From Acidobacteriota bacterium (GTDB lineage Bacteria; Acidobacteriota; Thermoanaerobaculia; Multivoradales; UBA5704), in NCBI GenBank assembly GCA_040005235.1, contig JBDTZG010000079.1:1-20063 (forward strand): DNA of 20,063 bases. Reading direction: 5' to 3'. The position numbers and the translations under genes are program-made. The notes beneath the pieces were generated by a model that saw only the letters and a program-made list of their open reading frames with translations, made no database searches and had not been told where the DNA came from. Shown here piece after piece: positions 761 to 17,052 of the stretch (positions are counted from its first letter, which is position 1; each line of letters starts with the position of its first letter).

Positions 761-3700
761 GTGAGCGGCGAAAACCTATTTCTGGCAGCACGGGTTCCCT
801 CGGTCGGGCCGACGAACCCACTTCGGGCGGCGCCTCGGCGCGCCAGTTTGCGGTCCATCGCCTTGATGGGGCTCGTCCTGTTGGCCGGCGCGGTCGGAGC
901 GAGAGCTGCAACCACGACGGTGACCCTGACAGCGGTCGCCGACACGACGCTCCGGCAACAGCAGACGAATCAGAACCGCGGCACCGACGAGTTGATTCGG
1001 CTCGGTTGGGCTCAAGGGAGCCGCGCTCTGGTCCGCTTCGATCAGGCCGCGATCGCCGCGGCGGTTGGAAGCGGTCATCTCGTCTCGGCGCAACTTGAGC
1101 TGTGGGTCGATGCCACCGGGGAAAGCTGGGGCAGCGGCGCGCAGAACGTCGGCACGCATCGCGTCACCGCCGATTGGACCGAAGCGGGCGCCACCTGGAG
1201 CTGCGCGATCGACAGCCACCCGGGCGACAACCATGCGGACTGCAACCTGCCGTGGAACGGCGGCTCGTTCCTCGCTGCGACCGCGACCGTGCCGCACACT
1301 AAGCAGACCCGCGGCGCCGTGACCTTTGGGGTCACCGCGGACGTCGCGGCGTTCCTTTCCGGCACCGCGAATCGCGGCTGGTTGCTCAAGAAGGCGAACG
1401 AGAGCGCGAGCGGCCGGATCGACTATGCCTCCCGCGAAGGGACTGCGGCGAGCCACGCCCCGCGCCTGATGCTGGTGGTCGAGACCAGCGGCGGCGATTC
1501 GACACTGCCGATCGTCACGATCACTGCGCCGGGGAGCGGCGCGCTGCTCCCGACCACCCTGCCCAAGGTCACCGCCTCGTATTCGGACGCCGGCTCGGGG
1601 ATCAACGCAACGTCCGCGCGGTTGACCGTGGACGGCGTAGACCGGACCGGCGGAGCGGTGGTGACGGCCGCGGGCCTCACCTGGACGCCGACCTCTCCGG
1701 TCGCCGAAGGCGCTCACACCGCGTCGGTGACCGTGCGCGACCTGGCGGGCAACTCCGCCTCGGCGAGCGCCTCGTTCTCGACCGACTCCCTGGTGCCGAC
1801 GCTCGCGATCGTTTCGCCGCCGCCCGGCCGGACGGTCGGGGCTTTGCCCCCGTCGATCGCCGTTGAGTATGCGGACCTCGGCTCCGGCCTCGATCTGGCC
1901 ACGGTGTCGATCAAGGTGGACGGCGCGGCGCTTTCCGGCTGCACGGTCGGCGCGTCCGCCGCGAGCTGCCAGGTCCCCACCCTCGCGCCGGGTGAGCACA
2001 CACTCGCGGCGAGCGTGCGCGACCGCGCGAGCAATCCCGGCAGCGGCGGCCTCAGCTTCGACTTCGTGCGCGACTTGACTCCCCCGACGATCGCGATCGA
2101 TGTGCCCGCCGACGGCGCGATCGGCAACGGCGCGGCGGTTCTGGTGTCCGGCACGGTTGCGGACGATTCCGGCGCGGAGATCGCGGTCTCGGTGAACGGC
2201 CAGCCCGCGCCGGTCGCGGGCGGGCGCTTCGCGGTCTTCGTGCCGCTCGCCGAGGGAGACAACGAGCTGGTCGCGATCGCGACCGACGTCGCCGGACGGC
2301 AGGCAAGCGCCACGATCTCTGCGGTGCTCGACACCGTTGCGCCTACTCTCGCCGTCGATTCGCCGCAAAGCGGCGCCACGACGAACGCCGCCGTCGCACG
2401 GGTTTCCGGCACGGCGGGCGACACCCAGGCGCTCGAAAGAGTGACCGTCGCGGGCGCGGTCGTCGCGGTCTCGGGCGGACGCTTCGCCGCCGATGTGCCG
2501 CTCGCCGAAGGGAGCAATTCGATCGAGGTCCGCGCGGTCGATCGGGCGGGCAACGACCGGCGGCTCGACGTGGCGGTCTCCCGCTTTTCGCTGCCGACGG
2601 TCGAGGTCACCGCGCCGGCCGATCTCTCCACGGTCGCCGCGACCACGCTGGATGTGCGCGGTACGACCGGCCAATCGGGCCTCATCGTGGCGGTCAACGG
2701 ACGCATGGCCGAGGTCTCCGGCACCTCGTGGGTGGCGACCGACGTGCCGCTGATCGAGGGGGGAAACCTGCTTACCGCGGTGGCGGTGGCGCCTTCGGGG
2801 CGGGTCGGCACAGCGACGATCAACGTCGTGCGCGACCTGGTCGCCCCGCGGCTATCGATCGACCTGCCGCGCGCCGGCTCGGTCCTATCCTCGCCCACAG
2901 TCACGGTGGTTGGCCTGGTCAACGACATCGTCGCCGGCACGGTCAACGCGGGCCAGGCGAGCGTGACGGTCAACGGCCGCCCGGCGATGGTCGCTAACCG
3001 GAGCTTCCTCGCCGTCGGCGTGCCGCTCGTCCCGGGCGAGAACACGCTCACCGCGGTCGCGACCGACGCTAGCGGCAACGTCGGCCAGGCCACAACCATC
3101 GTCCGCCTGGACACCTCCGCCGCGCCGCGCATCGTCGCGGTCGCGGGCGATGGCCAGAGCGGCACGATCCGCTCCGCCCTACCCGCGCCGCTCACCGTGG
3201 CGCTCACCGACGCCGCGGGCCTGCCGGTCGCGGGGCGCCAGGTCCTGTTCAAAGCGGTCGGATCGGACGGCCGGCTGAACGGCGTCGGCCGCCAGGCCGC
3301 GGTGCTCACGGGACCGGACGGTCGCGCGTCGGCAACGTACACACTCGGATCGCGCGCAGGGGTCGGCAACCAGGTGGTCGAGGCGATCGCCGCGGGCTTC
3401 GTCGGTCCCGCACTGTTCACAGAATCGGCCGAGCACGGCCCGGCGAGCTTGATCGTGGTCGACGCGGGAGATCAGCAGGAGGGTGCGACCGGCAACCTGT
3501 TGCCTCGCCCCCTCGTCGCGGCGGTCACTGATGCCGGCTTCAACCGTGTGCCCGGCGTGGCGGTACGCTTCGAGGTATTTAATGGTGGCGGCCGGTTCGC
3601 CAGCGACCAGACAGCGATACAGGTGACGACCGACAGCGATGGGCGCGCGATCGTGCCGTTCCGGATCGATTCGGCAGAGGGAGTGGCGAACAACGTGGTA

Positions 3701-5506
3701 GAGGCCTCCATCGTCGAACTTCCCAGCGGCCCGAGCACGCCGATCGCCGGATTCGTCGCCTCAGGACGCACGGCAGGGGTCGCGGACACCACGATCTCCG
3801 GCATCGTGCTCGACAACAGCAATCAACCAGTTCCGGGAACGACGCTACGCATCATGGGCAGCCCGCTCACCACGACCGCGAACGCCCAGGGGGTGTGGAA
3901 GCTCACCGGCGTGCCGGTCGGCCTGGTAAAACTGATCGTCGACGGCAGCACCACCTCCCGCCCCGGCGCCTGGCCGGACCTCGAATTCGTGATGACCACC
4001 ATCCCGGGGCGCGACAACACGCTGGGAATGCCGATCTTCCTGTTGCCGATCGATCTCGCCCAGGGGGTTCTGATCGACGAGACGCACGGCGGCCGGATCA
4101 CCCTCGCCGACGTACCGGGATTCGCGCTCGAAGTCGCGCCCGGCTCGGTAACGTTCCCTGGCGGCTCACGAAGCGGCGTCGTCTCGGTCACTTCCGTCCA
4201 CAGCGACAAGGTGCCGATGGTGCCGAACTTCGGCCAGCAACCGCGCCTGATCGTGACCATCCAACCGGCGGGAGCACGCTTCGATCCGCCGGCGCGCCTG
4301 ACCCTGCCGAACGTAGAGGGATACGCGCCCGGCCAGGTGACAGAGTTCTACTCGTTCGATCACGACCTCGGCCACTTCGTGAGCATCGGACCGGCGACGG
4401 TCTCCGACGACGGCGCTTTGATCGTGTCGAACCCCGGGGTGGGCATTGTGAAGGCCGGCTGGCACTGCGGAGGCAATCCGGGCGGTTCCGGCACCTCGCA
4501 CAACTGCCCAGAGTGCAAGAAGTGCGTCAACGGTTGTTGCAAGCCGAATGACGGACCGCCGTGCGACGACCACAATGAATGCACAATCAACGACAGCTGC
4601 CGAGGCGGGAGCTGCAAGGGTGATCCGGTCACTGTTACCGAAATCAAGGCCAAGTGCGTCGCCGCGGTGAACCAACCGATCCTGCTCACCGCAGCCTCCA
4701 ACGCCCGGGACAGAGTCAAATGGAAGGCGCCGGGCGGCACACCAGCGACCGGCATGGGCGGCTCTCTATCGGTAACCTACTCAACCGAGGGCGATTTTGT
4801 TGTGACTGCGATGTGCCGGGAAAGTGCGAAAACAAAGAAGGTGTCGACCGGACCAACATGCGCGACCATTGCGGGTTCCTTGAAAGAGCTCGAAACGGAA
4901 GGATCAGCCGGAGGCAACTTCGGAAAGGTGGTTCACGGAACCCGAGTTGAATCGAAATACAAGGCCTGCGTCGATGGATCAAACGGATACTGCTACCGTC
5001 TTGAGGAGTATTTACAAGAGCACTCGTTTAAAGTTGATATCCGCGGCCGAATAGATATTAAGGGTGCTGACGATCCACAGGTTGATCCATCGACCTGTGA
5101 AGCCATCATTGCGGATTTTACCCCGGATCCTTCCAGCCTAATAGATGGCCAGCCCGTGGCACACTACAGGAGTTACATTTCGAGATCGATCATCGAAGCC
5201 CATGAGCAGGTTCACGTCGCGGACGGCACCAATCTTATTGCAAAGATTGTGTTTAGCAAGCTGACGGAATTCGTCTCGCGAACAGTAACATGCAAGGCGT
5301 GCAAAGGGCCAAGCGACTACGAAAAAGCAGTGTTTGACCTCGAGAGAGCAAGACTGTTCTTCGAGCGGCTTACGATAGAAAAAGAAGGGGCCGAGGCGCG
5401 AGGTTATTTGGCGGAGAACGCCCTGCTGGGTGCGTTGACATCTGCGATCCGTCAACGTGCGCGCTCGGCGCCTCCTACGGAAGGGTGGCCGGAGGAATGC
5501 AAGTGA
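761..5506 (+). CDS. Large secreted multidomain surface protein (1581 aa): signal peptide, DNRLRE-like domain, ~6 Ig-like repeats, 2 intimin/Big_1-like domains, carboxypeptidase-regulatory-like and ZU5-like core, Cys-rich repeat, PKD-like domain, C-terminal HExxH putative Zn-metallopeptidase tip
   Basis: Basic N-region and h-region IALMGLVLLAGAVGARA. ADTTLRQ...RALVRFD...HRVTADWTE...TW...NRGWLLK...SRE...PRL is the DNRLRE-type pattern (~920-1485). Six DxxxPT(I/L/V)xIxxP...ATD/VRDxAGN repeats at ~1500-3110. Two AGDxQxG...LPxPLxxxxTDAxG..VxF units at ~3130-3770. ISGIVLDNSNQPVPG and PAGARFDPPARLTLP motifs, CDDHNECTINDSC, and HEQVH at 5201-5215. Confidence 0.9.
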   Translation: MSGENLFLAARVPSVGPTNPLRAAPRRASLRSIALMGLVLLAGAVGARAATTTVTLTAVADTTLRQQQTNQNRGTDELIRLGWAQGSRALVRFDQAAIAAAVGSGHLVSAQLELWVDATGESWGSGAQNVGTHRVTADWTEAGATWSCAIDSHPGDNHADCNLPWNGGSFLAATATVPHTKQTRGAVTFGVTADVAAFLSGTANRGWLLKKANESASGRIDYASREGTAASHAPRLMLVVETSGGDSTLPIVTITAPGSGALLPTTLPKVTASYSDAGSGINATSARLTVDGVDRTGGAVVTAAGLTWTPTSPVAEGAHTASVTVRDLAGNSASASASFSTDSLVPTLAIVSPPPGRTVGALPPSIAVEYADLGSGLDLATVSIKVDGAALSGCTVGASAASCQVPTLAPGEHTLAASVRDRASNPGSGGLSFDFVRDLTPPTIAIDVPADGAIGNGAAVLVSGTVADDSGAEIAVSVNGQPAPVAGGRFAVFVPLAEGDNELVAIATDVAGRQASATISAVLDTVAPTLAVDSPQSGATTNAAVARVSGTAGDTQALERVTVAGAVVAVSGGRFAADVPLAEGSNSIEVRAVDRAGNDRRLDVAVSRFSLPTVEVTAPADLSTVAATTLDVRGTTGQSGLIVAVNGRMAEVSGTSWVATDVPLIEGGNLLTAVAVAPSGRVGTATINVVRDLVAPRLSIDLPRAGSVLSSPTVTVVGLVNDIVAGTVNAGQASVTVNGRPAMVANRSFLAVGVPLVPGENTLTAVATDASGNVGQATTIVRLDTSAAPRIVAVAGDGQSGTIRSALPAPLTVALTDAAGLPVAGRQVLFKAVGSDGRLNGVGRQAAVLTGPDGRASATYTLGSRAGVGNQVVEAIAAGFVGPALFTESAEHGPASLIVVDAGDQQEGATGNLLPRPLVAAVTDAGFNRVPGVAVRFEVFNGGGRFASDQTAIQVTTDSDGRAIVPFRIDSAEGVANNVVEASIVELPSGPSTPIAGFVASGRTAGVADTTISGIVLDNSNQPVPGTTLRIMGSPLTTTANAQGVWKLTGVPVGLVKLIVDGSTTSRPGAWPDLEFVMTTIPGRDNTLGMPIFLLPIDLAQGVLIDETHGGRITLADVPGFALEVAPGSVTFPGGSRSGVVSVTSVHSDKVPMVPNFGQQPRLIVTIQPAGARFDPPARLTLPNVEGYAPGQVTEFYSFDHDLGHFVSIGPATVSDDGALIVSNPGVGIVKAGWHCGGNPGGSGTSHNCPECKKCVNGCCKPNDGPPCDDHNECTINDSCRGGSCKGDPVTVTEIKAKCVAAVNQPILLTAASNARDRVKWKAPGGTPATGMGGSLSVTYSTEGDFVVTAMCRESAKTKKVSTGPTCATIAGSLKELETEGSAGGNFGKVVHGTRVESKYKACVDGSNGYCYRLEEYLQEHSFKVDIRGRIDIKGADDPQVDPSTCEAIIADFTPDPSSLIDGQPVAHYRSYISRSIIEAHEQVHVADGTNLIAKIVFSKLTEFVSRTVTCKACKGPSDYEKAVFDLERARLFFERLTIEKEGAEARGYLAENALLGALTSAIRQRARSAPPTEGWPEECK
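3780..4650 (+). repeat. Direct repeat copy 1 (partner at 6361-7231, offset 2581 bp)
   Basis: tcgcggacaccacgatctccggcatcgtgctcgacaacagcaat occurs at 3780 and 6361. The copies are colinear without indels to ggctggcactgc (4468/7049), then less identical to ~4650/7231. Confidence 0.95.
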
Positions 5507-6291
5507 GACTACTCACTCGTTGTCCAAGCACTTTCGTGCTGTTCGTTGGCTTCTTTCTCTGCGGTCAGGCTTTGACAGCGAATCGACCTGTCGTGCCCGG
5601 CCGACATACTGGCAATGAGACACAGGAATATTATCTTAAGAAGGCGGGAGTTTCAACAGACCTAGCTTCGCTAATCCGCGCCGCTCGGTCAAACAACGAT
5701 CTGCTGGTACGGGCTTTTGCGGTGGAACTACTGGGGGCTCGCAACGAACGGAGTGCAATCCCGACACTGGAAACGGTCTATAAACTAGACCAAGAATCCC
5801 TGATTCGGGAAACTGCAGCCCTCGCGTTGGCAAGCATGGAAGTGCCTGGTGCTGTAGAAAAGCTTGAGGAATGTCTTCGGAAGAATGTACGTGGACTGGA
5901 TCGGCAAGTCTACTTGGCGATCCGCTTAGTCGAGTTTGGCGACCACGTCGGGTATCAATACGTCGTAGCTGCGGCTCGCTCGACAGATCCTTACCTGCGG
6001 GACTTGGCAGCGATGGGCCTTGTCAGATTTGGCACCTCCGGCTGGACCGGAACGGATCCAGAAACCCTGCCCGTCACTCTTCTGGGGAAGCTTCTTAACG
6101 ATCCTGTCGCCAGAGTTCGCCGCGCGGTGATCGTGAACATTTCAGGGGTATCACGTGGATTCGATCCAACAGAATTTGTAGCCAAGATTGCCACCCTGGC
6201 GAAGGCCGACCCCGATCCAGATGTGCGACACGCAGCGGAGATCTTCCTGTTCTTCCACAAGCCGGCCCGACCCGAGGAAGCGACGCCTTGA
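5503..6291 (+). CDS. Exported HEAT-repeat protein 1 (putative cognate immunity/inhibitor of tip 1)
   Basis: GTG 5503 overlaps the upstream stop (GTGA), with SD GGAGGA at 5491-5496 (the ORF track starts at 5485). N-terminal hydrophobic stretch FVLFVGFFLCGQALTA. HEAT/PBS-lyase-like units: DLLVRAFAVELLG, ESLIRETAALALA, DPYLRDLAAMGL, DPVARVRRAVI, DPDPDVRHAAEIFL. Confidence 0.85.
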   Translation: MRLLTRCPSTFVLFVGFFLCGQALTANRPVVPGRHTGNETQEYYLKKAGVSTDLASLIRAARSNNDLLVRAFAVELLGARNERSAIPTLETVYKLDQESLIRETAALALASMEVPGAVEKLEECLRKNVRGLDRQVYLAIRLVEFGDHVGYQYVVAAARSTDPYLRDLAAMGLVRFGTSGWTGTDPETLPVTLLGKLLNDPVARVRRAVIVNISGVSRGFDPTEFVAKIATLAKADPDPDVRHAAEIFLFFHKPARPEEATP

Positions 6292-8069
6292 ACCGATCTG
6301 CTGACTGGACATCGAGTCCTGCCGCGTCGATGTCGACCGCGACCGGTCGAACCGCGGGTATCGCGGACACCACGATCTCCGGCATCGTGCTCGACAACAG
6401 CAATCTACCGGTGCCGGGAACGACGCTGCGCATTCTGGGCAGACCGCTCACCACGACCGCGAACTCTCAGGGGGTGTTCAAGCTCACGGGCGTGCCGGTC
6501 GGCCTGGTCAAGTTGATCGTCGACGGCAGCACTACCTCCCGCCCCGGCGCCTGGCCGGACCTCGAATTCGTGATGGCCACCATCCCGGGGCGCGACAACA
6601 CGCTGGGAATGCCGAGCTTCCTGTTGCCGATCGATCTCGCCCAAGGGGTGCTGATCGACGAGACGCATGGCGGCCGGATCACCCTCGCAAACGTGCCGGG
6701 CTTCGCGCTCGACGTTCTACCCGGTTCGGTGACGTTCCCCGGCGGCTCGCGAAGCGGTGTCGTCTCGGTCACCGCCGTCCATAGCGACAAAGTGCCGATG
6801 GTGCCGAACTTCGGCCAGCAGCCTCGCCTGATCGTCACCATTCAGCCGGCAGGAGCGCGCTTCGATCCGCCGGCCCGGCTGACTCTGCCAAACCTTGAAG
6901 GCTACGCTCCCGGCCGGGTGACCGAGATCTATTCGTTCGATCACGACCTCGGCCACTTCGTAAGCATCGGCCCGGCGACGGTTTCCGACGACGGCGCTTC
7001 GATCGTGTCGAATCCCGGAGTGGGAATTGTGAAGGCCGGCTGGCACTGCAGCGGATATCCAAGTAGCTCCGGAACCTCGCACAACTGCCCGGAATGCTGG
7101 AAGTGCGTCAACGACTACTGCGCAGCGGACAACCTAAGGCCGTGCGACGACCACGATGAATGCACGACCGGCGACATCTGCCGCGAGGGCGTGTGCAAAG
7201 GTGATCCCGTCACAGTGACCGAGATCAAAGGAAACTGTGTCGGCGCCGTCGACCAGGCCATTTCACTGACAGCCGTCTCGAATAGAGCGGACAAGATTGA
7301 GTGGCTGGCCCCGAGTGGCACCCCCGCTCGAGGAAAGGGCGCAACGTTTGCGGTGACCTATTCAAACGAAGGCGATTTTCTCGTCAATGCGATGTGCAAG
7401 TCGAGTCTGAAGGCAAAGAGGGTCTCGACGGGACCGGACTGCGGGTCGATCGTAGCGGTGTTAAATGAGCCCGAAGTGGCTGGTGGAACGAGGGGGAACT
7501 GGGGCCTGGTCCAGCCAGGGTCGCAGAAAGTTGGGAAGTACAAAGGCTGCGCGACTGGTGGAAAATGGTGCTTCCGGCTTGAGGAGTACTTGGAGGAGCA
7601 CACCTTCGGTATCGACGGCGGCGCCGCGATCGATATCTCGGGACCCGCCGATTCGGACGTTACGCCCGCTACCTGCGCGGCGATCATCGCCGACCTTACG
7701 CCGCCAGCCGTCGGTACCCCCCTTGGGCCGCCGCGCTCGAGGTACTGGTCGCAAGTGATCACGATCTCACATGAACGGTTCCACGTCATGGATCTTCATA
7801 ACCGGATCACCAGCAAGGTTTTCGCCGACCTCGAGACTTTCGTCAAGCAATCTAGCCCTTGCACCGACTGTAAAAGCGCGGTCTCACAGGCGACACTCGA
7901 CGCCAAGATGGACTCCCTCTTCAGTATCTATTTCACGGACGTAATCCGGAACGCCGAGAAACTGGCTCACAATTACTCGAACCCGTTGTATGGGACTCTG
8001 ATCTCTGGAATCAAAGTGCGGGCTCGATCCTCGCCAGCGAGCGAAGCCTGGCCGGCGGCATGCAAGTAG
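6288..8069 (+). CDS. Orphan C-terminal module: N-terminally truncated paralog of 761-5506 with no signal peptide and a variant HExxH tip
   Basis: From ~6340 it aligns to residue ~1001 onward of the 1581-aa protein (15 differences in 229 aa from ADTTISG to KAGWHC). HERFH at 7770-7784 and the same WPxxCK terminus. Possible starts are TTG 6288 (TTGA overlap) or ATG 6330. No hydrophobic leader. Confidence 0.85.
   Translation: MNRSADWTSSPAASMSTATGRTAGIADTTISGIVLDNSNLPVPGTTLRILGRPLTTTANSQGVFKLTGVPVGLVKLIVDGSTTSRPGAWPDLEFVMATIPGRDNTLGMPSFLLPIDLAQGVLIDETHGGRITLANVPGFALDVLPGSVTFPGGSRSGVVSVTAVHSDKVPMVPNFGQQPRLIVTIQPAGARFDPPARLTLPNLEGYAPGRVTEIYSFDHDLGHFVSIGPATVSDDGASIVSNPGVGIVKAGWHCSGYPSSSGTSHNCPECWKCVNDYCAADNLRPCDDHDECTTGDICREGVCKGDPVTVTEIKGNCVGAVDQAISLTAVSNRADKIEWLAPSGTPARGKGATFAVTYSNEGDFLVNAMCKSSLKAKRVSTGPDCGSIVAVLNEPEVAGGTRGNWGLVQPGSQKVGKYKGCATGGKWCFRLEEYLEEHTFGIDGGAAIDISGPADSDVTPATCAAIIADLTPPAVGTPLGPPRSRYWSQVITISHERFHVMDLHNRITSKVFADLETFVKQSSPCTDCKSAVSQATLDAKMDSLFSIYFTDVIRNAEKLAHNYSNPLYGTLISGIKVRARSSPASEAWPAACK
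6361..7231 (+). repeat. Direct repeat copy 2 (partner at 3780-4650)
   Basis: See copy 1. Many of the differences are at third codon positions. Confidence 0.95.
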
Positions 8070-8078
8070 GAGCCGACA

Positions 8079-8864
8079 ATGAGAAAGACGACGATGTGGT
8101 CGATGTTCGTGATGGCCCTGTTGTTGGTGAGTACGGTGTGTAGATCCGATCAGCGAGGGGGCTCGGGGACGCTTCCGGACATGCTGCTCGGCGTGCTCGC
8201 GAGCGCGCAGGTAGAACTGGAGCCTTCCTCGCTCGTCCACGCGCTCGCCACGCACCCAGATCCCCTGATTCGAGGCCTCGCTGCCGAGGCTCTCGGGCTG
8301 CTCGGAGAGCGGTCGGCAGAAACCTCTCTCCTCAGTTCTCTCCAGACCGACGCCGATCGAATGGTCCGCGAGCTCGCCGCGCTGGCACTCGCACGGATGG
8401 GCAACGAAACCGGCCTGACGGCGCTGAAAGGATTCCTACGCAGCTCGGACAGTCCTGTCAGGCAATTGACCATGGCCGCGCAGTTGGCCGAACTCGGCGA
8501 GTCGGCCGGCTTCTCGATCGTGGTTGAGGCCGCAGCGTCTCGGCAGACTTCGACGAGAAGCCTTGCAGCAGAGGCTCTGGCCGCGTTCGTCTCACTGGCA
8601 GGGCTAACCGACGACCGGGGGCGGTCGCCCGCAGAGATGCTGTTGGAACTAGCTGGTGACGACAGCGCGGAAGTCCGGCTAACGGTGGTTCAGAACCTGC
8701 CAGAGGCGACACGCAAGGGGATGGACCTTGAGGCGGCACGGTCGACCACAAAGCGCCTCGCCGCTGATGTCGATCCTGTGGTTCGAGAATCCGCGCAGTC
8801 GCTGCTGGACGCCTGGCGTTTCGATGCCGACGAAAAGGCTCGCCGCGAGGGGGGGCCAGGGTGA
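8079..8864 (+). CDS. Exported HEAT-repeat protein 2 (putative cognate partner of orphan tip 2)
   Basis: SD AGGAG at 8068-8072. Signal-like MRKTTMWSMFVMALLLVSTVC. HEAT units: DPLIRGLAAEALG, DRMVRELAALALA, TSTRSLAAEALA, DSAEVRLTVVQNL, DPVVRESAQSLL. Colinear with HEAT protein 1. Confidence 0.88.
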   Translation: MRKTTMWSMFVMALLLVSTVCRSDQRGGSGTLPDMLLGVLASAQVELEPSSLVHALATHPDPLIRGLAAEALGLLGERSAETSLLSSLQTDADRMVRELAALALARMGNETGLTALKGFLRSSDSPVRQLTMAAQLAELGESAGFSIVVEAAASRQTSTRSLAAEALAAFVSLAGLTDDRGRSPAEMLLELAGDDSAEVRLTVVQNLPEATRKGMDLEAARSTTKRLAADVDPVVRESAQSLLDAWRFDADEKARREGGPG

Positions 8865-11800
8865 CTCACGGGTTCCGAAAGGACGGAAAAATGTCCAAAG
8901 TCAAGGGGCGGCTCGCGCGGGTCGTCTGGATCTGGGGAGCTTTCATGCTCGTGGGGCTCGCCGCGCAGGGCACCGACCCAAGGGGCGCGCTCGGGCCCGA
9001 GGTGACTTCGCTCTCCATCTCGGCGTCCTCAAGCTCGATGCTCGTCGGGGCGGCCTCTCAGCTAGCGGTCGTCGCAACCTTCGATGACGGCTCAACGCGA
9101 GACGTAACCTCCGCAACCCTCACTCTGATTCAAGCCTCCCCCGAGGGGGTCGTTGCGATTGATTCGACCGGATCGGTGACCGGGATCTCTAGCGGCGATG
9201 TCGTCGTTGTCGCTTCCTACCAAACTTATACGAGCATTGAGTCCGCTTCTCTAACCCTCATCATCCGCACCCCCGACGACCGCGATGGCGACGGCCTGAC
9301 CGACGCCGTCGAGATCGCAAACCAGCTCAACCCCGACTTTGCTGCGGATGCGGGCGCGGATCTCGACCAGGACGGCTTGACCAACGCCCGGGAGATCGCG
9401 CTCGGCACCGACCTCCGCAAAATGGATACCGACAGCGACTATCTTTCCGACGGGATCGAGGTCGCGCAAGGCACCGACCCGTTGGTCTCCGATCTGCCGC
9501 CCCCACCTCCTCCACCGACTTCCGAGCTCGGCAGCGGATGTGTCATCTCCGTGCTCAACCGATCTGCACGCGTCGAATCGGATGGTACCTGGGTTCTGCC
9601 CAACATCCCGTCGAGCTCCGGCCCGGTGCGAGCGCGGGCGACCTGCGTCGACAATGGCGTCAGCCGTTCCGGCCAGTCCGACTTCTTCGTCGTCCCGCCG
9701 GATGGAGTGATCCGCGTCGCCGACATCCGGTTCGACGCGCCGCAGCAGATCCCCGCGAAGCTCGACCTGGTGGCGCCGACCACCGACCTGTCGACCGCCG
9801 GCCAAAGCGTGCAGCTGCTCGCCCGCGCGACCTATCCGGGCGGTGCGCAGGCCGACCTGACCGCGGCGGCCAACGGCACCGGCTACCGCGTGTCGAACCC
9901 TGCGATCGCCGAGATTTCGGCCGAAGGGCTGGTGACCGCGCACTCTAGCGGCACGGTGATCGTGAGCGCGCTCAACGAGGGCGCGCTCGGCGTCCTTCAA
10001 ATTCACGTCGCGCTCTCGGGCGACAGCGACGGCGACGGCCTGCCGGACGACTTCGAGATCGCCAACGGTCTCGATCCGAACAACCCGCTAGACGTTCTCG
10101 ACGACCTCGATGGCGACGGGCTTACCAACGGCGAAGAGTTCGCGCGCGGCACCGGCTTGAGGAACCCCGACACCGATGGCGATGGTCTGCGTGACGGCGA
10201 CGAAGTGAATCGCTATGGCACCGACCCTCTCCTGTTCGATACCGACGGCGATGGGGTGGGAGATGGCCTTGAGGTCCAGAGCGGCAGCGACCCGCTCGAT
10301 CCGGCGAGCCTGAATCTGGCGACGATTTTGACCTCGCTCACGGCTACGCCGGGCGCTCTCCACCTCGAGTTCGATACCGTGGTGGGCGAGGCGTCCCAAC
10401 GCCTGAACGTCACCGGTCGGTTGATCGACGGCCGGACAATCGACCTACGCTCTCGGAGCCGAGGCACCACCTATGCTTCGAACGATCTGACGGTGGCCTC
10501 GTTCGGCGCGGAAGATGGCCGCGTTTTCGCCGGCCAGGGTGGTGTTGCCACGATCACGGTGAGCAACAGCGGGAAGAGTGCGACGGTGGCGGTTCAGGTG
10601 ACGACCTTCAGTCCAACCTCGCTGGCGTTTCTTTCGATCCCGGGTTTCCCCAACGGTGTGGACGTCGGCAGCACCGGCGCGGGCGACTTCGCCTACGTTG
10701 CGGCAGGATCGGCGGGCTTGGTCGTGGTCGACGTTTCGAACCTGTCGCAACCGCGGATCGTTGGCTCGCTCGATACGCCCGGAAACGCCAACGACGTCAG
10801 GGTCGTTGGCGACCTGGCCTATGTCGCCGACGGAACGAGCGGTCTGCTGATCGTCGACGTTGCGAATTCAAACGCGCCGGTGCTGCTCGGGCGAGCGAAC
10901 ACCCCCGGCAATGCGACCGACGTCGCGCTACGCGGTAGTTTTGCCTATGTCGCGGACGGAGCTTCGGGCCTCGCCGTGATCGACGTCGGCAACCCGGCGG
11001 CGCCCGTACTCCGCGGCCAGGTCGACACTCCAGGAAACGCTCGCGGCGTCGACATCGCGGACGGCGACCTGGTCGTGGTTGCCGATGCCGGATCGGGAGT
11101 CGAAGTGATCGACGTCGCCGATCCTGCCGTTCCGGCAATCCTGGCCCGTGTCCACACTCGAGGTTCGTCATCGGCTGCCGCAGACGTCTGCGTACGCGGT
11201 TCGCTCGCCTACGTGGCGGATGCCGCGGGGCTCACGTTGGGTGGTTTGAAGGTGATCGATTTCAGCGTGCCGGATACACCCGTGATGATCGGGGAGACGC
11301 GCGCCGACCTCGCACTCGACGGGGTTGCGATCGAGGATGGGTTCGTGCTCGCGTCGGACTATTTCTTCTATAACGCCGTGCCGATTCTCAACGTCGGAGA
11401 ACCGCGGGAGCCAACCTTCGCAGCGAACTTGAACTTCGGAAGCGGCCCGACGTTTCGAGATGACAACGGCAACGGGATTGCGGTCGAAAACGGTGCGGTG
11501 TTCATGGTCGGCGTGGTGGGGCAGATCACCGACAATGGCACAGTCGGCAACGGCGGCCTGTACATCGGCCGCTATCGATCCGCGCGAGACACGGCCGGCG
11601 TGGCTCCGGAGGTGACCCTCACTGCGCCGATTCAAGGTACGGAGACGGTGGCTCGGTCGATCGTCCGGGTTCGAGCAACGGCAACCGACGACATTCGCGT
11701 CGCGTCGGTGCGGTTCGCGATCGACGGAAATCCGGTCGCCGTCGACTGGAAGCCGCCGTTCGAGGCGGAACTCAGAATTCCCGAGGGGGTGACGTCGATG

Positions 11801-14053
11801 GTGCTCACCGCCATCGCTTCGGACCTCGGCGGCAACGAGACGACTTCCGACCCGGTCCAGGTCTCGGTGCTCTCGGACGAGAAACCGACCGTTTCGATCC
11901 TGGCGCCGAATCCGGCCAGCCGTTGGGTGGAGGGAATGACCGTGGGGATCGCGGTCCTGGCTACCGATGACCTGGGCGTGACTTCGGTGGAGATCCGCGC
12001 CGACGGCGTGTCGCAAACCCGTACGAGCCCTCCCTATCTGGTGGCCTTCACGATCCCGCTCGGCGCTAACGCGGTCACGATCGAGGCCATCGCGCGCGAT
12101 GCGAGCGGACATGCGACGACCTCAGGTCCGCGCGTCATCCCGGTTTTCGACGATCTGCCGCCGATCGTGGCGATCGTGAGCCCTGCCGCGGGAGGAAACG
12201 TCATGGAGGGCACGCGGCTGAAAGTCGGCATCGGCGCGATCGACGACACCGCGATCCGGAGTGTGCGCCTGTTCGCCGGCGACACGCTGGTCGGCTCCGA
12301 CAGCTCGGCCCCCTATGAGGTGATGTACCAAGTTCCGCTCGGCGCGACGCTCGTTCGCCTGCGCGCGGAGGCGACCGATTCGATCGACCAGATCGGCAGC
12401 TCGGTCGAGGTCCCCGTTCCGGTCCTACCGGATGCATTGACCACCGTGTCAGGGCGCGCGCTCGACGACGCCGGCCTGCCGGTTTCCGACGCAAGCGTAA
12501 CCTGCCAAGGCGTCGCCGGAGCGACCGGCGCGGACGGTCGTTTTGCGCTCCCCGGCCTGCCTACGATCTTTGGGGACATTGCCTGTGCGGTCGTGTCCAG
12601 CGGAACCGGCGATTCGCTCAGTGGAGTTTCCGCCGCCCAACCCCCCGTTCCCGGAGACGTGACGCCGGTCGGCGACGTCGTACTGACCGGCAAGGTCCTC
12701 TATTTTTCGACCGGCTATGCCGCGAGCCAATACGGTGTTCCCGGCCGGCTCTACGCCTACGACAGCGGCCGCGACCGGGCCGTACCGCAAAGCGAGCCGC
12801 TGCCGACCGACGGTCTGCGGGCGATCGTGTTTTCTCCCGCGGGTCAGCTGTACGCTCTGCGCAACCAAGGTCTCCTCCAAACGGCAGGGGCTCGGGCGGT
12901 CGGCACCGGCTCGACCAGCGAGCTGCTCCAAATCGATCCGGACTCCGGCGAAATCCTCGCCAATCTGGGGCCCGTGCGGGTCGGCGCGACCCAGATCGGC
13001 ATGGACGATCTGGCCTGGAATCCGATAAATCACAAGCTCTACGGTTTGGACGTCGGCCGGTTCGGCGACTCTCGGCGCCTTTACACGATCGATCCGGCCA
13101 CCGCTCGGGCGACTCCCCTCGGCAGCACTTATTCTTTCGTTAGCGCGGGCCTCGCCGCCGGACCGGACGGCCTTCTCTACATCTTCGGGCAGTGGAGCGG
13201 CGGCAGCGAGCTCGGTGGCCTGATCAACCGGCTCTCGGTGAGTGACTCCGCGGGCGTACAGATTTCCGATACGGCGGTCTCGGCCTATGTCGGCAGCGTC
13301 GAATCGGTCGAGTACCGCCCCGGCCGTCACAGCCTGCTGTTCGCGGGAAGCGGGCAGATCTTCGATCTCGATCCCGCCACACTCGGCGTCGTGCCCTATG
13401 CCGCGCCCAACGTCGAGTTGATGTACGACGAGCCCATCGCAGGGATGGACTTTCGACCGGTCGTGGGCTCTACGCCGACGACGCTCGCCGGCCGGCTGGT
13501 GGACGAGAGTGGCCTGGCCTTGGCGGGCGTAGAGGTCGAGACCCTGGGAGGAGCGACCACCTCTGGGCCGGACGGCACCTTCTCGCTCGACAGCCTCACG
13601 GTGCGCACCGCGAAGGTACGGATCGTCGCCCGAGCGTTTACCCTCACCACCCTTTCGGCGGCTCTCGAACCCGTCTCCGGCGGTGTCACCGACTTCGGCG
13701 ATTTGATCGCGGCACCCGCCACCACATGCGTCGTCGGCGATCTGGCCTACGACGGTTGCCGAACCGGGCCGGCCGCAGTGCCTTTTCCGCTGTTCGTGGA
13801 CGATGGCGGATTTCTACCGATCGGCGATGGGATCGCGCCCGATCCATCGGGCCATTTCTGCGCCACGCTACGACGCGGAGTTCCCTATCTTCTCTACCGG
13901 ACCGATCTCGACTGCGATGGGACTCCGGCTTACTGCGTGGCGTTTATGGCAGCCTACGCCCCGGGAGCCGCCTCGACCTGCACCGATGGCGCGCCGGTCT
14001 GCGAAGACCTGCACACGGTGACGATGTACTGCGGCGTATTCGGAGGATCTTAG
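8861..14053 (+). CDS. Large secreted multidomain protein (1730 aa): Big_2-like Ig domains, two blocks of thrombospondin-type-3-like Ca-binding repeats, LVIVD-repeat beta-propeller, three further Ig-like domains, two carboxypeptidase-regulatory-like domains flanking a second propeller-like region, Cys-rich tail
   Basis: GTGA overlap with the upstream stop (alternative ATG 8891). Signal-like RLARVVWIWGAFMLVGLAAQG. QLAVVATFDDGSTRDVT-type Ig units. DxDGDGLxDxxE/GTDP repeats at ~9275-9495 and ~10020-10305. AYVAxGxxGLxV(I/V)DVxNxxxPxxxGxxxTPGNAxDV repeats at ~10625-11300. PxVxIxxP...ATDD..V..V units at ~11590-12430. Confidence 0.92.
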   Translation: MTHGFRKDGKMSKVKGRLARVVWIWGAFMLVGLAAQGTDPRGALGPEVTSLSISASSSSMLVGAASQLAVVATFDDGSTRDVTSATLTLIQASPEGVVAIDSTGSVTGISSGDVVVVASYQTYTSIESASLTLIIRTPDDRDGDGLTDAVEIANQLNPDFAADAGADLDQDGLTNAREIALGTDLRKMDTDSDYLSDGIEVAQGTDPLVSDLPPPPPPPTSELGSGCVISVLNRSARVESDGTWVLPNIPSSSGPVRARATCVDNGVSRSGQSDFFVVPPDGVIRVADIRFDAPQQIPAKLDLVAPTTDLSTAGQSVQLLARATYPGGAQADLTAAANGTGYRVSNPAIAEISAEGLVTAHSSGTVIVSALNEGALGVLQIHVALSGDSDGDGLPDDFEIANGLDPNNPLDVLDDLDGDGLTNGEEFARGTGLRNPDTDGDGLRDGDEVNRYGTDPLLFDTDGDGVGDGLEVQSGSDPLDPASLNLATILTSLTATPGALHLEFDTVVGEASQRLNVTGRLIDGRTIDLRSRSRGTTYASNDLTVASFGAEDGRVFAGQGGVATITVSNSGKSATVAVQVTTFSPTSLAFLSIPGFPNGVDVGSTGAGDFAYVAAGSAGLVVVDVSNLSQPRIVGSLDTPGNANDVRVVGDLAYVADGTSGLLIVDVANSNAPVLLGRANTPGNATDVALRGSFAYVADGASGLAVIDVGNPAAPVLRGQVDTPGNARGVDIADGDLVVVADAGSGVEVIDVADPAVPAILARVHTRGSSSAAADVCVRGSLAYVADAAGLTLGGLKVIDFSVPDTPVMIGETRADLALDGVAIEDGFVLASDYFFYNAVPILNVGEPREPTFAANLNFGSGPTFRDDNGNGIAVENGAVFMVGVVGQITDNGTVGNGGLYIGRYRSARDTAGVAPEVTLTAPIQGTETVARSIVRVRATATDDIRVASVRFAIDGNPVAVDWKPPFEAELRIPEGVTSMVLTAIASDLGGNETTSDPVQVSVLSDEKPTVSILAPNPASRWVEGMTVGIAVLATDDLGVTSVEIRADGVSQTRTSPPYLVAFTIPLGANAVTIEAIARDASGHATTSGPRVIPVFDDLPPIVAIVSPAAGGNVMEGTRLKVGIGAIDDTAIRSVRLFAGDTLVGSDSSAPYEVMYQVPLGATLVRLRAEATDSIDQIGSSVEVPVPVLPDALTTVSGRALDDAGLPVSDASVTCQGVAGATGADGRFALPGLPTIFGDIACAVVSSGTGDSLSGVSAAQPPVPGDVTPVGDVVLTGKVLYFSTGYAASQYGVPGRLYAYDSGRDRAVPQSEPLPTDGLRAIVFSPAGQLYALRNQGLLQTAGARAVGTGSTSELLQIDPDSGEILANLGPVRVGATQIGMDDLAWNPINHKLYGLDVGRFGDSRRLYTIDPATARATPLGSTYSFVSAGLAAGPDGLLYIFGQWSGGSELGGLINRLSVSDSAGVQISDTAVSAYVGSVESVEYRPGRHSLLFAGSGQIFDLDPATLGVVPYAAPNVELMYDEPIAGMDFRPVVGSTPTTLAGRLVDESGLALAGVEVETLGGATTSGPDGTFSLDSLTVRTAKVRIVARAFTLTTLSAALEPVSGGVTDFGDLIAAPATTCVVGDLAYDGCRTGPAAVPFPLFVDDGGFLPIGDGIAPDPSGHFCATLRRGVPYLLYRTDLDCDGTPAYCVAFMAAYAPGAASTCTDGAPVCEDLHTVTMYCGVFGGS

Positions 14054-14057
14054 GGGG

Positions 14058-15707
14058 ATGTTGAAGTACTCGGTGCCAACCGAAGACGAGGGAACCACTC
14101 GGCGCGAGCTGTTGACCCGTCTCGCCGCGGTAGCGCTCGCGCTGCCTGGCGAGAGAGTAGGGAGGACAAAGGCGGCGAAGATGCCTACAGGTGCTTCCGC
14201 CCGAGTCGTCGATCCGGAGCTTGAGCGCGCCTACCAGGTCCGCCTCGACGCGGCCCGCCAAGCGCGCGATCTGGGGCGGACCGCCCACCGAGCGAACGGC
14301 GACGAGCAGGGCCCGGTCGGCCGGCTGGCCAGTTTCTCGAAAGCGTTGCCGCACGATCCGCAGGGCCGGGTGGACAACAAGGCCTACGACGTCCTGTTCC
14401 GCGCTCTGGCGAGCGGAGCGCCGGGGGATTTCGAAAACGTGCCGCTCGGCGGTTTCGCCCGGCTCGCGAATCCGCAGGCCGGTTGGTCGCTCGGGTTGGT
14501 CGGTCCCGCCCCGGTGCAGCTGTCCTGCCCTCCCGCGCCGACGCTCGCCAGCGCCGAACAGGCGGGAGAGCTGGTCGAGCTCTATTGGCAGGCGCTGCTG
14601 CGCGACGTGCCGTTCGCCCAATATGGCGACCATCCGCTCGCCCGCGAGGCCGCCGCCGATCTGTCGCGCCTGTCGGATTTCCGCGGCCCGCTCGAAAGCG
14701 GCGCGGTGACCGCCGAGACGCTGTTTCGTGGCTCCCAGCCGGGGGACGTCTCAGGTCCGTACATCTCGCAGTTCTTGCTCAAACCGGTGCCCTACCTGCC
14801 GACGATCATCGATCAGAAGATCCGGACGGTCGTGCCGGAGGTCGACTATCTTCTCGACTTGCCCGAATGGTCGAAGATCCAGAACGGCGCTCTCGCCGGG
14901 GTCAACCGATTCGACCCCCAGGCTCGCTATCTGCGCAACGGCCGTGATCTGGGGGAGTATGTCCACCGCGATTTCTCCTACCAGCCCTATCTCTCCGCCT
15001 GCCTGATGGCGCTCAAATGGGGGACTCCGCCGGACGGCGGGAACCCCTACAAGCACTCGCGGACGCAGAGCGCATTTTCGACGTTCGGGCCGCCTTATCT
15101 GCTCGCGCTGCTCGCGATCGTCACCCAGTCGGCGCTCGCCGCCTGCTGGTACCAGAAATGGCGCGTACACCGCCGCCTGCGGCCCGAGGAGCTGGCCGGC
15201 CGCTGGGAGGCCAGCCGACGCATCGACGGTGCACCGGCGCTTCCAATCCATGGCGATCTCGAATCTTCGAGCGCGGTCGCCGAGATTCGCCGCGCCCACG
15301 CGGAATCCAGCCTGTTGCCCCAAGCCTATCCGGAGGGTTGCCCAATCCACCCTTCTTATCCCTCCGGTCACGCTGCGATCGCCGGAGCGTGTGTCACCGC
15401 GCTCAAGGCTGTACTCGACGAGCGTCATATCGTCCCCGAGCCGGCCGAAGCCGCGTCGGACGGCACTTCACTGATTCCCTACAAGGGACGCGAACTGGCG
15501 GTCGGAGAAGAGCTCGACAAACTGGCATCCAACATCTCGCTTGGCCGTGGTTTTGCCGGTATCCACTGGCGGAGCGACACCTCAGCCGGTCTCTTCCTGG
15601 GTGAAGAGGTCGCGCTCCGGACATTGGCCGAGATGAAGGGAACGGGCAACGAACTGTTCCAGAGCTATGCCCTGCGGCGGTTCGATGGCCGGAGGGTCGA
15701 GGTCTAG
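14058..15707 (+). CDS. Vanadium-dependent haloperoxidase (bromoperoxidase-type, PAP2 superfamily) with a putative Tat signal
   Basis: All three vanadate-binding motifs are present: WYQKWRVHRRLRPEE, CPIHPSYPSGHA and NISLGRGFAGIHWRSD. The N-terminal FSKALPHD...G.V and ELVELYWQALLRDVPF segments resemble algal/cyanobacterial VBPOs. TTRRELL twin-arginine motif followed by LAAVALAL. Confidence 0.9.
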   Translation: MLKYSVPTEDEGTTRRELLTRLAAVALALPGERVGRTKAAKMPTGASARVVDPELERAYQVRLDAARQARDLGRTAHRANGDEQGPVGRLASFSKALPHDPQGRVDNKAYDVLFRALASGAPGDFENVPLGGFARLANPQAGWSLGLVGPAPVQLSCPPAPTLASAEQAGELVELYWQALLRDVPFAQYGDHPLAREAAADLSRLSDFRGPLESGAVTAETLFRGSQPGDVSGPYISQFLLKPVPYLPTIIDQKIRTVVPEVDYLLDLPEWSKIQNGALAGVNRFDPQARYLRNGRDLGEYVHRDFSYQPYLSACLMALKWGTPPDGGNPYKHSRTQSAFSTFGPPYLLALLAIVTQSALAACWYQKWRVHRRLRPEELAGRWEASRRIDGAPALPIHGDLESSSAVAEIRRAHAESSLLPQAYPEGCPIHPSYPSGHAAIAGACVTALKAVLDERHIVPEPAEAASDGTSLIPYKGRELAVGEELDKLASNISLGRGFAGIHWRSDTSAGLFLGEEVALRTLAEMKGTGNELFQSYALRRFDGRRVEV

Positions 15708-15730
15708 CGCCGACGGTGTGAGGCAACTCC

Positions 15731-16945
15731 CTACACCAACTTCAACAGGTGCCCGAGCTTCTCACGCTTGGTGCGCAGATAGTCGCGGCTCAGGTCGGTC
15801 GGGGGGACCTCGAGCTGGACGCGCTCGACGATCTCCAGGCCGTAGCCGTCCAGAGCGATGTACTTGCTCGGGTTGTTGGTCATCAGCCGCATCTTGCGGA
15901 CGCCCAGGTTGCGCAGGATTTGGGCACCGATCCCATAGTCGCGCTGGTCGGGACGGAAACCGAGATGCTCGTTGGCCTCGACCGTGTCCTGGCCCTGGTC
16001 TTGAAGCTCGTAAGCGCGCAGCTTGTTGATTAGCCCGATGCCGCGCCCCTCCTGGAGAAGATAGAGCACGATGCCTTTTCCTTCGGCGCCGATTCGGGCG
16101 AGAGCTTGGTGGAGCTGGGGGCCGCAGTCGCAGCGGGCCGAGCCGAAGATGTCTCCCGTCAGGCACTGGCTGTGAACCCGGACCAGGATCGGCTCGTCCG
16201 CGTCGATCGTACCCATCACCAGCGCGACGTTTTCATCGCCGGTCACGTCCGAGCGGTAGGCGTGGATGCGAAACTCGCCGTATTCCGTAGGCAGGCGAGG
16301 CGAGGCGACCTCTTTGACCAGCGTCTCGTGGCGCAGCCGGTAGCTGATCAGATCGGCAACCGTGACCATCAACAGGCCGTGCTCGGCGGCGAACAGGGTG
16401 AGGTCAGGTACCCTGGCCATCGAGCCGTCGTCTTTCATCACTTCGCAGATCACCCCCGAGGGGTTGAGCCCGGCGAGCTTGGCGAGATCGACCGACGCCT
16501 CGGTCTGGCCGGCGCGCTTGAGCACGCCGCCGCGCCGGGCGCGGAGCGGGAAGATGTGGCCGGGGCGGAGGAGATCCTCCGGCCGGGTGCGCGGGTCGAT
16601 CGCCGTAAGGACGGTCGCCGACCGGTCGGCGGCCGAAATGCCGGTCGAGATTTTCCCCCGCGCCTCGATCGAGACGGTGAACGCGGTGCCGTAGGGGGAG
16701 GTGTTGGTCTCCACCATCAGCGGCAGCTCAAGCTGGTTGCAGCGCTCTTCCGTGAGGGTCAGGCAGATCAGCCCCCGGCCGAACCGGGCCATGAAGTTGA
16801 TCGCGTCGGGGGTGACCTTCTCGGCGGCGATCGTCAGGTCGCCCTCGTTTTCGCGGTCCTCGTCGTCGACCACGATGAGCATCCGCCCGCGGCGGATCTC
16901 TTCAATGGCCTGTTCGATCGTAGCGAAGGGAGAATCCGGAGGCAT
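15731..16945 (-). CDS. ribBA: Bifunctional 3,4-dihydroxy-2-butanone-4-phosphate synthase / GTP cyclohydrolase II
   Basis: RibB motifs: [50 protein letters not shown]. RibA motifs: [42 protein letters not shown]. Likely start ATG 16945 ([14 protein letters not shown], 404 aa) rather than the 17017 in the ORF track. Confidence 0.97.
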
Positions 16946-17052
16946 GTCAGCTCTTTCGATGGCGGAACGGCTCGTGCGGAGCCGGGAGAGGTTCAAACCG
17001 AAAACGAGAGGGGGCAAATTGCATGGCGCGCGAGACGTCCGCCCGCCCTCTG

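Follow-up and report, generated by a model that had tools for sequence, protein, structure and literature searches.

A candidate polymorphic effector/immunity locus with a headless orphan cassette in Thermoanaerobaculia

The weapons that bacteria use against each other are well charted in Proteobacteria, Bacteroidota and Firmicutes. Acidobacteriota are abundant in soil, and to our knowledge their weapon systems have hardly been mapped; a literature search combining Thermoanaerobaculia with toxin and immunity returned no paper. Among the described systems, Rhs toxins are recognised by RHS/YD repeats and a PxxxxDPxGL core end, and the CdiA toxins of contact-dependent inhibition (CDI) by a TPS domain, FHA repeats and a VENN motif ahead of the C-terminal toxin (CT). 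CdiA-CT/CdiI orphan pairs stand downstream of their main gene and retain a conserved piece up to the demarcation motif. Here we analyse a candidate locus of this general kind on a contig of an Acidobacteriota genome (JBDTZG010000079.1; 20,063 nt, the whole of which we call the window), in which a long Ig-stalk protein, ORF1, is followed by a shorter, headless relative, ORF2, each with a HEAT-repeat gene behind it. Polymorphic toxin systems were defined by Zhang, Aravind et al. 2012 (PMC3482391). The excerpts of that survey used here describe trafficking by signal peptide through the type II secretion system (T2SS), several HExxH metallopeptidase toxin domains and an Imm-HEAT class of immunity proteins, which these excerpts list only with Tox-REase-7, a nuclease. 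For the main rhs gene and the rhs-CT orphan/rhsI orphan of Salmonella Typhimurium LT2, recombinants have been shown experimentally (Koskiniemi et al. 2014, PMC3967940, likewise cited from excerpts).

With a probability of roughly 0.68, we read the window as a polymorphic effector/immunity locus in a soil bacterium of the Thermoanaerobaculia, in which a Sec-type stalk of Ig domains and a conserved arm would carry a variable HExxH module with a HEAT partner. ORF2 and HEAT2 would be its headless orphan, the identity gradient between the two copies would be composite, and the segment comprising tip1 and HEAT1 would have been joined to the stalk by recombination. This reading is carried by the observed anatomy of the locus, the change-points along the repeat, the polymorphism of tips across the family, the linkage of tip and HEAT genes and the binding predicted between their products. 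As a kind, such a system is already known: both orphan cassettes of polymorphic toxins and Imm-HEAT immunity proteins have been described (PMC3482391).

The window is the entire contig (C95) of a 6.2-Mb metagenome-assembled genome (MAG) in 140 contigs with 66% G+C, labelled G000 below. Copies 1 and 2 of the repeated segment are called c1 and c2, G007 and G006 are congeners, and X1 to X4 are sequencing runs. Five tightly packed genes lie on the + strand, ORF1, HEAT1, ORF2, HEAT2 and ORF5, and they and their parts are as follows (the signal peptide of ORF1 was judged by eye from the translation):

761..5506, + strand: ORF1, 1581 aa, with a signal-peptide-like N-terminus, Ig-type stalk, arm, Cys-rich segment, PKD-like segment and HExxH tip1
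3758..4468, + strand: arm copy 1, a CarboxypepD_reg-like beta-sandwich and a second beta-sandwich, with the closing KAGWHC at 4451-4468
4469..4627, + strand: linker and Cys-rich segment, copy 1, holding the c1-c2 third-position change-point at about 4601
4628..4840, + strand: PKD-like segment, copy 1, with the composition/divergence junction at about 4760 inside it (support 4706-4793)
4841..5503, + strand: tip1, HExxH domain with HEQVH at 5201-5215; G+C at third codon positions (GC3) 0.56
5485..6291, + strand: HEAT1, HEAT-repeat partner, GC3 0.55, N-terminus signal-peptide-like; opens inside the 3' end of ORF1
6292..6337, + strand: junction, from behind the HEAT1 stop up to arm 2
6288..8069, + strand: ORF2 (orphan), 593 aa, with 17 unique residues ahead of arm 2
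6339-7049, + strand: arm 2, within ORF2, with KAGWHC at 7032-7049
7050-7208, + strand: Cys-rich segment, copy 2, within ORF2
7209-7421, + strand: PKD-like segment, copy 2, within ORF2
7422-8066, + strand: tip2, within ORF2, with HERFH at 7770-7784
8079..8864, + strand: HEAT2, HEAT-repeat partner of tip2, with a signal-peptide-like N-terminus
8861..14053, + strand: ORF5, 1730 aa, with LVIVD, TSP3_bac, Big_7 and CarboxypepD_reg

With the polymorphic toxin systems of PMC3482391 the locus shares variable tips, a downstream partner, an orphan cassette and the HEAT nature of that partner. It differs in that the carrier, an Ig stalk closed by K[AG]GWHC, and the HExxH tip match no named Pfam toxin family; an equivalent may be listed elsewhere in PMC3482391. 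The layout is also like that of Salmonella Rhs (PMC3967940), where a full-length gene is followed by a headless fragment with a piece of the core, a different tip and its own immunity gene, and where recombination through the shared stretch would deploy the orphan tip and delete the main tip with its immunity gene. This stretch measures 711 bp at 89.5% identity here, compared with 522 bp at 95% in Salmonella (PMC3967940). Unlike Salmonella Rhs, ORF1 shows neither Rhs/YD repeats nor an association with a secretion system of type VI (T6SS) in Pfam, it has a Sec-type Ig-domain stalk and a K[AG]GWHC boundary, and recombinants were not seen here. The Pfam scan of ORF1 gives only Ig-type, CarboxypepD_reg and PKD domains, in the order Big_13, Big_7, Glucodextran_B (four times), Big_1 and CarboxypepD_reg, followed by a weak PKD match. 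ORF2 with HEAT2 is like the CDI orphans in lying downstream and in keeping a piece of the arm up to the boundary motif. However, the scan finds no TPS, FHA or VENN on ORF1, and no CdiB-type transporter gene is among the Pfam-scanned ORFs of the window. At the T6SS of Vibrio cholerae it is reportedly mainly immunity genes that are retained, whereas here the whole, presumably displaced tip is intact, together with its arm. The arrangement as such, with a new effector-immunity pair in the active place and the former one downstream, is like the displacement described there (Kirchberger et al. 2017, PMC5361080, cited from excerpts). No name for the carrier family, its boundary motif or its tip domain was found in the literature or in Pfam as searched.

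Age, constraint and origin of the duplicated segment

A preliminary description of this DNA had reported two copies at an offset of 2581 bp with a stepwise identity gradient, and our recount confirms this. The direct repeat begins at 3757 and 6338, its 5' edge is sharp with no DNA similarity upstream, and the offset of 2581 is constant over c1 nt 3755 to 4987. From GRTAG to KAGWHC, 219 of 235 residues of the arm are identical between c1 and c2 (214 of 229 in the earlier count, 93% in both), in the Cys-rich segment 34 of 53 (64%; earlier 41/60, 68%) and in the PKD-like segment 43 of 71 (61%; earlier 42/71). The further drop in the tip stands as well, but the identity there had been put too low at roughly a third, since tip1 and tip2 are identical at 95 of 214 residues (44%). 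HEAT1 and HEAT2 share 35% identity across 206 aa. At the DNA level the two arms (711 nt) are 89.5% identical, with 75 mismatched positions and at most 45 identical nt in a row. The start of homology coincides, as had been proposed, with a predicted domain boundary: it lies in the linker that follows Big_1 (best stretch ORF1 aa 919-973) and precedes CarboxypepD_reg (aa 1011-1061). In the structural model of ORF2 the first 8 residues are disordered.

To separate age from constraint, the Nei-Gojobori proportion of synonymous differences (pS) was computed per segment for c1, c2 and the single-cassette locus of G007, whose stalk is 86% identical to ORF1 and whose tip is 73% identical to ORF2:

Arm, first half: c1-c2 0.22, c1-G007 0.28, c2-G007 0.22
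Arm, second half: c1-c2 0.34, c1-G007 0.37, c2-G007 0.35
Cys-rich segment: c1-c2 0.56, c1-G007 0.53, c2-G007 0.57
PKD-like segment: c1-c2 0.72, c1-G007 0.61, c2-G007 0.62
Tip: c1-c2 0.71, c1-G007 0.79, c2-G007 0.62

The baseline between G000 and G007 is 0.26 for ribBA, which serves as the housekeeping measure of divergence, and 0.34 for the stalk. The arms of c1 and c2 thus differ about as much as expected from the species split and about as much as either arm differs from that of the congener (0.22-0.37), which argues against the recent homogenisation of the arm that had been offered as one explanation. The earlier argument that a single duplication decaying evenly would not produce the gradient is borne out, since synonymous divergence is not uniform: the third-position mismatch between c1 and c2 rises from 0.25 to 0.60 at c1 nt 4601 (support 4592-4607, 2dlnL 71.9). 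This change-point lies about 130 nt past KAGWHC, and the model confidence (pLDDT) is low immediately past the motif. Beyond about 4601, c1 and c2 appear to be old alleles whose synonymous sites look saturated, and the variable module is likely older than the arm. The amino acid steps between Cys-rich segment, PKD-like segment and tip have another cause. They recur in every between-species pair (c1-G007, c2-G007 and those with G006) and therefore reflect differing constraint. Residues of the arm are 78-93% conserved towards G006; the second half of the arm is 81% identical to that of G006, the tip only 26%. The 93% identity of the arms is mostly the work of purifying selection. Taken together, the gradient appears to be composite: arms of species-split age under purifying selection, older alleles past about 4601, and an imported 3' part.

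Codon composition points to this import. GC3 is 0.86 in the stalk, 0.85 in arm 1 and 0.86 in ribBA; it is 0.56 in tip1, 0.55 in HEAT1, and 0.73 each in tip2 and HEAT2. Along ORF1 and HEAT1 it changes from 0.85 to 0.55 at 4763 (support 4706-4793, 2dlnL 171.8), and this position coincides with the change-point of divergence between c1 and G007 at 4757 (support 4736-4769). The two independent signals thus place a junction inside the PKD-like segment. In a tree of 25 tips, tip2 groups with the tips of G007, P0001, P0002 and P0004 (support 94) and tip1 sits apart from them on a long branch; the arm trees join c1, c2 and G007 in one tight trio. Of the explanations given beforehand, import of a foreign tip by recombination fits best. 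The stretch from about 4763 to 6291, comprising the 3' part of the PKD-like segment, tip1 and HEAT1, is of foreign composition and was most likely joined to the resident stalk by recombination. Tip1 and tip2 are not unrelated; they appear to be old alleles of one HExxH family. As to the direction of the displacement, tip1 with HEAT1 would have moved into the active position, leaving behind the tip2 cassette and its arm downstream. The 46 nt of the junction (6292-6337) resemble neither the sequence behind HEAT2 nor the stalk end to a significant degree (scores reached by 26 and 50 of 200 shuffles). In general, new modules probably come in through recombination close to K[AG]GWHC; the change-points and the decoupling of arm and tip across the family point to this.

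The HExxH tip and its HEAT partner

Four residues, P94, H117, E118 and H121, do not vary in 41 tip sequences, and three more (D91, E179 and A182) hardly do. The AlphaFold model of the tip (pLDDT 95.8) shows a long beta-hairpin and a three-helix bundle, with HExxH in helix 111-142 and E179 in helix 178-203. A helical HExxH followed by a downstream Glu is the arrangement of zincins and gluzincins, and in this model E179 is a plausible metal ligand. We infer that the tip may be a zinc-dependent hydrolase, and by analogy with polymorphic toxins it could be toxic. By sequence no relative was found in the PDB, and the best VIA-align score (Z 5.2) was to helical bundles. An Atlas lead to DUF922 (score 0.87) was dropped, as Pfam assigns DUF922 to none of the 41 sequences. 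Built from four tips, a profile matches 465 cluster representatives in a protein library (E<=0.001), and some of these homologues sit behind eCIS_core (PF13699), PG_binding_1 or fn3. The first of these domains we take to be the PVC-metallopeptidase. In the excerpts of PMC3482391, PVC-metallopeptidase is a marker of toxins secreted by the PVC system.

A HEAT gene directly follows the HExxH tip in 8 of 8 cases, the two in the window and 6 of 6 other loci, so that by linkage the tip has its own downstream gene. Both partners match HEAT_2 in Pfam (HEAT1 E=1.9e-18, HEAT2 E=2.5e-18), and a HEAT-repeat protein encoded beside the tip is what characterises Imm-HEAT. One HExxH-tip locus (L045:4426-6529) has two tandem HEAT-repeat genes of 329 aa each, the second of which may be an extra, orphan immunity gene.

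Binding between tip2 and HEAT2 is supported by prediction. The complex model reaches an ipSAE of 0.90 in three of three runs, and the best of three controls scored 0.00; the ipSAE mark is reached by 116 of 157 solved complexes and by 2 of 215 mismatched pairs, a rough calibration in which own alignments were used. At least 94% of the contacts agree between runs, and the pLDDT of the partners is at least 93. The predicted interface includes H121 and tip residues 93-100 and 164-195. In tests uncontrolled for surface exposure, interface residues are less conserved than the rest between tip2 and the G007 tip (33% versus 65% identity, p=2e-4), between HEAT2 and HEAT1 (15% versus 36%, p=0.009) and between HEAT2 and the G007 HEAT protein (17% versus 42%, p=0.0025). 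It is conceivable that the stalk presents or releases the variable module and that the HExxH tip acts outside the cytoplasm, where the secreted HEAT protein would clamp over the HExxH face and block the tip in the producer, as an immunity protein or inhibitor.

A polymorphic family and its orphan cassette

The arm is present in 20 of 41 related genomes searched, G000 counted, and in 292 stretches of a species-representative genome collection. A K[AG]GWHC-like motif closes 80 of 82 arms, and the 73 complete C-termini behind it fall into 27 tip clusters. Arms that are 82-89% identical carry tips from different clusters, so that a conserved stalk is joined to alternative C-termini among close relatives, as in polymorphic toxins. 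Arm and tip identities of single pairs are 93% and 44% (c1-c2), 49% and 57% (G007-P0006) and 42% and 53% (G007-P0009), and over 159 pairs with related tips the two are weakly correlated (Spearman 0.30). Arm and tip therefore appear largely decoupled. Another contig of G000 (C52, 10756-29050, locus L029) holds two more full-length family genes in tandem, of 1988 and 2358 aa. The DNA of these paralogues, A and B, matches at 88% along 2014 nt, up to a point about 140 nt downstream of a K[AT]GWGGC motif. Behind it the two tips show no DNA similarity and have no Pfam family but PKD in common; one has PG_binding_1. Each is then followed by its own signal-peptide-bearing gene without a Pfam family, and an ORF5-like gene stands after the pair. 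The locus in the window is a member of this Thermoanaerobaculia family, whose Sec-type proteins have an Ig stalk, the K[AG]GWHC boundary and polymorphic C-termini.

ORF2 has neither stalk nor signal peptide, and its frame is open over 593 codons. Together with HEAT2 it forms an orphan cassette that shares the conserved part of the main gene, a hallmark of polymorphic toxins. Singletons on the arm branches (nonsynonymous/synonymous) number 8/18 for c2, 6/25 for c1 and 9/24 for G007 (chi-square p=0.59), and by these similar ratios the orphan arm is under purifying selection like the others. Either ORF2 was orphaned recently or selection would still be acting on it. The model of the whole ORF2 finds only generic beta-sandwich array matches (S-layer proteins, complement C3, teneurin). 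The congeners G007 and G006 have one cassette each. Three further loci (L097, L126 and L160) were considered as orphans and rejected, as their short upstream frames are frameshifted full genes. In two others (L130:136-1724 and L145:145-1599) both on metagenome contigs, the frame opens at the last Ig unit, some 100-136 codons ahead of the arm, and the L130 frame stands directly behind an ORF5-like fragment. Both may be longer-armed orphans, on contigs too short to tell.

The preliminary description had also proposed that crossing over within the arm would remove 2581 bp and fuse tip2 in frame to the stalk. The arithmetic is right: (6288-761-2581) mod 3 is 0, and the product would be a stalk-tip2 fusion of 1575 aa. 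The added claim that the arm is suited to tip swapping is conjectural, as the recombinant allele was not seen. In principle, a RecA-type crossover between the arms is possible, and by analogy with Rhs the 711-nt stretch at 89.5% identity might serve it. HEAT2 is probably still co-transcribed and would keep up immunity to neighbours with a tip2-type module. We also considered the G007 locus as a product of such a deletion and rejected this, since only the windows 4088-4208 favour c2 (pS 0.19 versus 0.34-0.38), which is too little.

Successive gene spacings from ORF1 to ORF5 are -22, -4, +9 and -4 nt, so that the genes overlap or abut. HEAT1 and ORF2 overlap by 4 nt (TTGA), as do HEAT2 and ORF5 (GTGA), and GGAGGA stands inside the 3' end of ORF1, just ahead of possible HEAT1 starts. 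The overlaps and GGAGGA suggest translational coupling along the operon. A scan found no promoter- or terminator-like sites on the + strand between the five genes, and the count of such sites is within the expectation from shuffling. ORF5 is a conserved gene downstream of the tip/HEAT cassette in G007, G006, G011, G001, L076, L096, L126 and L145. With only 59% identity to its G007 counterpart (pS 0.53) it evolves fast, and it may act as a partner in export or in display at the surface. The flank 14058-17017 encodes a 549-aa PAP2 phosphatase-domain protein on the + strand and the bifunctional ribBA (DHBP synthase/GTP cyclohydrolase II) on the - strand.

Alternative explanations and biological meaning

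Misassembly of two strains, raised earlier as a possible source of the tandem layout, would require that strains with different tips were merged on one contig. The MAG is in 140 contigs, and the Logan contigs break at the arm repeat. However, the stretch is present in two runs of one study, X1 and X2, and in both a single Logan contig of 2386 nt covers 4005-6390, reaching from the 3' part of arm 1 through tip1, HEAT1 and the junction 52 nt into arm 2. The stalk and both cassettes are covered at even depth (stalk/cassette 1/cassette 2 18.4/21.1/19.5 in X1, 10/11.4/11.3 in X2), whereas two strains that share one stalk would give the stalk the summed depth of the cassettes. The bridging contigs and the even depth thus make a misassembly unlikely, and we regard an artefact as very improbable. 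With the uneven synonymous divergence and the single cassettes of G007 and G006, the earlier observation thereby withstands the conditions that had been named for its refutation. If the layout is genuine, it could still be a plain tandem duplication with all parts of the same age, the gradient arising from the strength of selection without recombination or import. The same amino acid gradient in the comparisons with G007 and G006, the 81% identity of the second arm half even to G006 and the homology of the tips over their full length would fit this. It is hard to reconcile with the third-position step from 0.25 to 0.60 at 4601, with the drop of GC3 from 0.85 to 0.55 at 4763 while tip2 and HEAT2 of the same operon stay at 0.73, and with the tree, which puts tip2 among the tips of other lineages and apart from tip1; we consider it quite unlikely. 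We give a similarly small chance to ongoing gene conversion, in which concerted evolution would keep the arms alike and maintain a substrate for recombination. The arm's least diverged tract, 175 nt long (3933-4107), has 96.6% identity, compared with 87.1% in the remainder, the windows 3908-4028 have a c1-c2 pS of 0.10-0.12, lower than that of either copy against G007 (0.24-0.34), and arm trees weakly pair c1 with c2 (support 77, 90). Yet 14 of 200 codon permutations reach the score of this tract, so that we do not claim it as a conversion tract, and the values for the whole arm (0.22 and 0.34) are not below those towards G007 or the baseline; 75 differences in 711 nt with no identical run beyond 45 nt also speak against it.

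The function could also lie outside warfare. The tip might be a surface or secreted protease or a binding module for nutrition, adhesion or matrix remodelling, with the HEAT protein as its dedicated periplasmic inhibitor or chaperone, the diversity of tips arising from substrate range or from phage or predator pressure, and ORF2 a leftover. ORF1 carries no marker of T5SS, T6SS or T7SS (type V, VI and VII secretion systems), Rhs or CDI in the Pfam scan, its stalk is made of adhesin-type Ig domains, another tip in G000 has PG_binding_1, and no module for entry into a target cell was recognised. We nevertheless find this rather unlikely in view of the layout of a polymorphic toxin, with 27 tip types in 73 C-termini behind one motif, the type-specific partner downstream in 8 of 8 cases, the presence of the same tip domain behind eCIS_core (if that is, as we assume, the PVC-metallopeptidase toxin marker), and predicted interface residues that diverge faster in several pairs.

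Several points weigh against our own reading of the window as a polymorphic effector/immunity locus. The tip belongs to no Pfam family (0 of 41 members) and has no Foldseek match in the PDB at E<=0.001, the motif is what speaks for a zinc-dependent hydrolase, and no route of export to the surface or into a target cell was identified. In the same uncontrolled tests as above, the interface is not significantly more diverged between tip2 and tip1 (p=0.17), between tip2 and the G006 tip (p=0.25) or between HEAT2 and P0152-P0154 (p=0.05, 0.58 and 0.72). The lower codon bias of the variable module could inflate its synonymous divergence (dS) over that of the arm. A search of 401 genomes of the class yielded no donor of tip1; the best match there is tip2 (44%) and the next 41%. 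A second arm within the flanks was seen at 0 of 80 genome loci and 0 of 69 metagenome loci; the orphan layout is thus rare in the family, and this leaves a regular role in swapping without support. The joint of the 2581-bp deletion is absent from the Logan contigs of X1-X4, which drop rare variants (X3 and X4 hold small shares of the stretch and were not interpreted), and X1 and X2 are possibly the source of the assembly and so not independent of it.

Going further, we tentatively propose, at somewhat under even odds, an effector system of Thermoanaerobaculia and neighbouring soil lineages that has not been described before. It would combine a Sec-exported Ig stalk and a K[AG]GWHC recombination boundary with dozens of exchangeable modules, among them an HExxH domain without a clear match to a solved fold, which would be neutralised in the periplasm by a co-diversifying HEAT protein. 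The orphan would then be a working reserve cassette, kept open by selection and placed on the stalk by a 2581-bp deletion.

For studies of duplicated genes in general, the locus shows how age and constraint can be mixed in one stepwise identity gradient, and that comparing the same segments between species separates the two. The window would offer a natural snapshot of tip displacement in which both recombination scars are readable, one as the step of divergence at about 4601 and the other as the step of composition at about 4763. The family-wide boundary motif is usable to mine new effector domains, and the HExxH domain with its HEAT partner, well predicted by the models, is a pair open to direct testing. 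Orphan cassettes are a known bacterial way to keep spare weapons, and here one would be found in a little-studied group.

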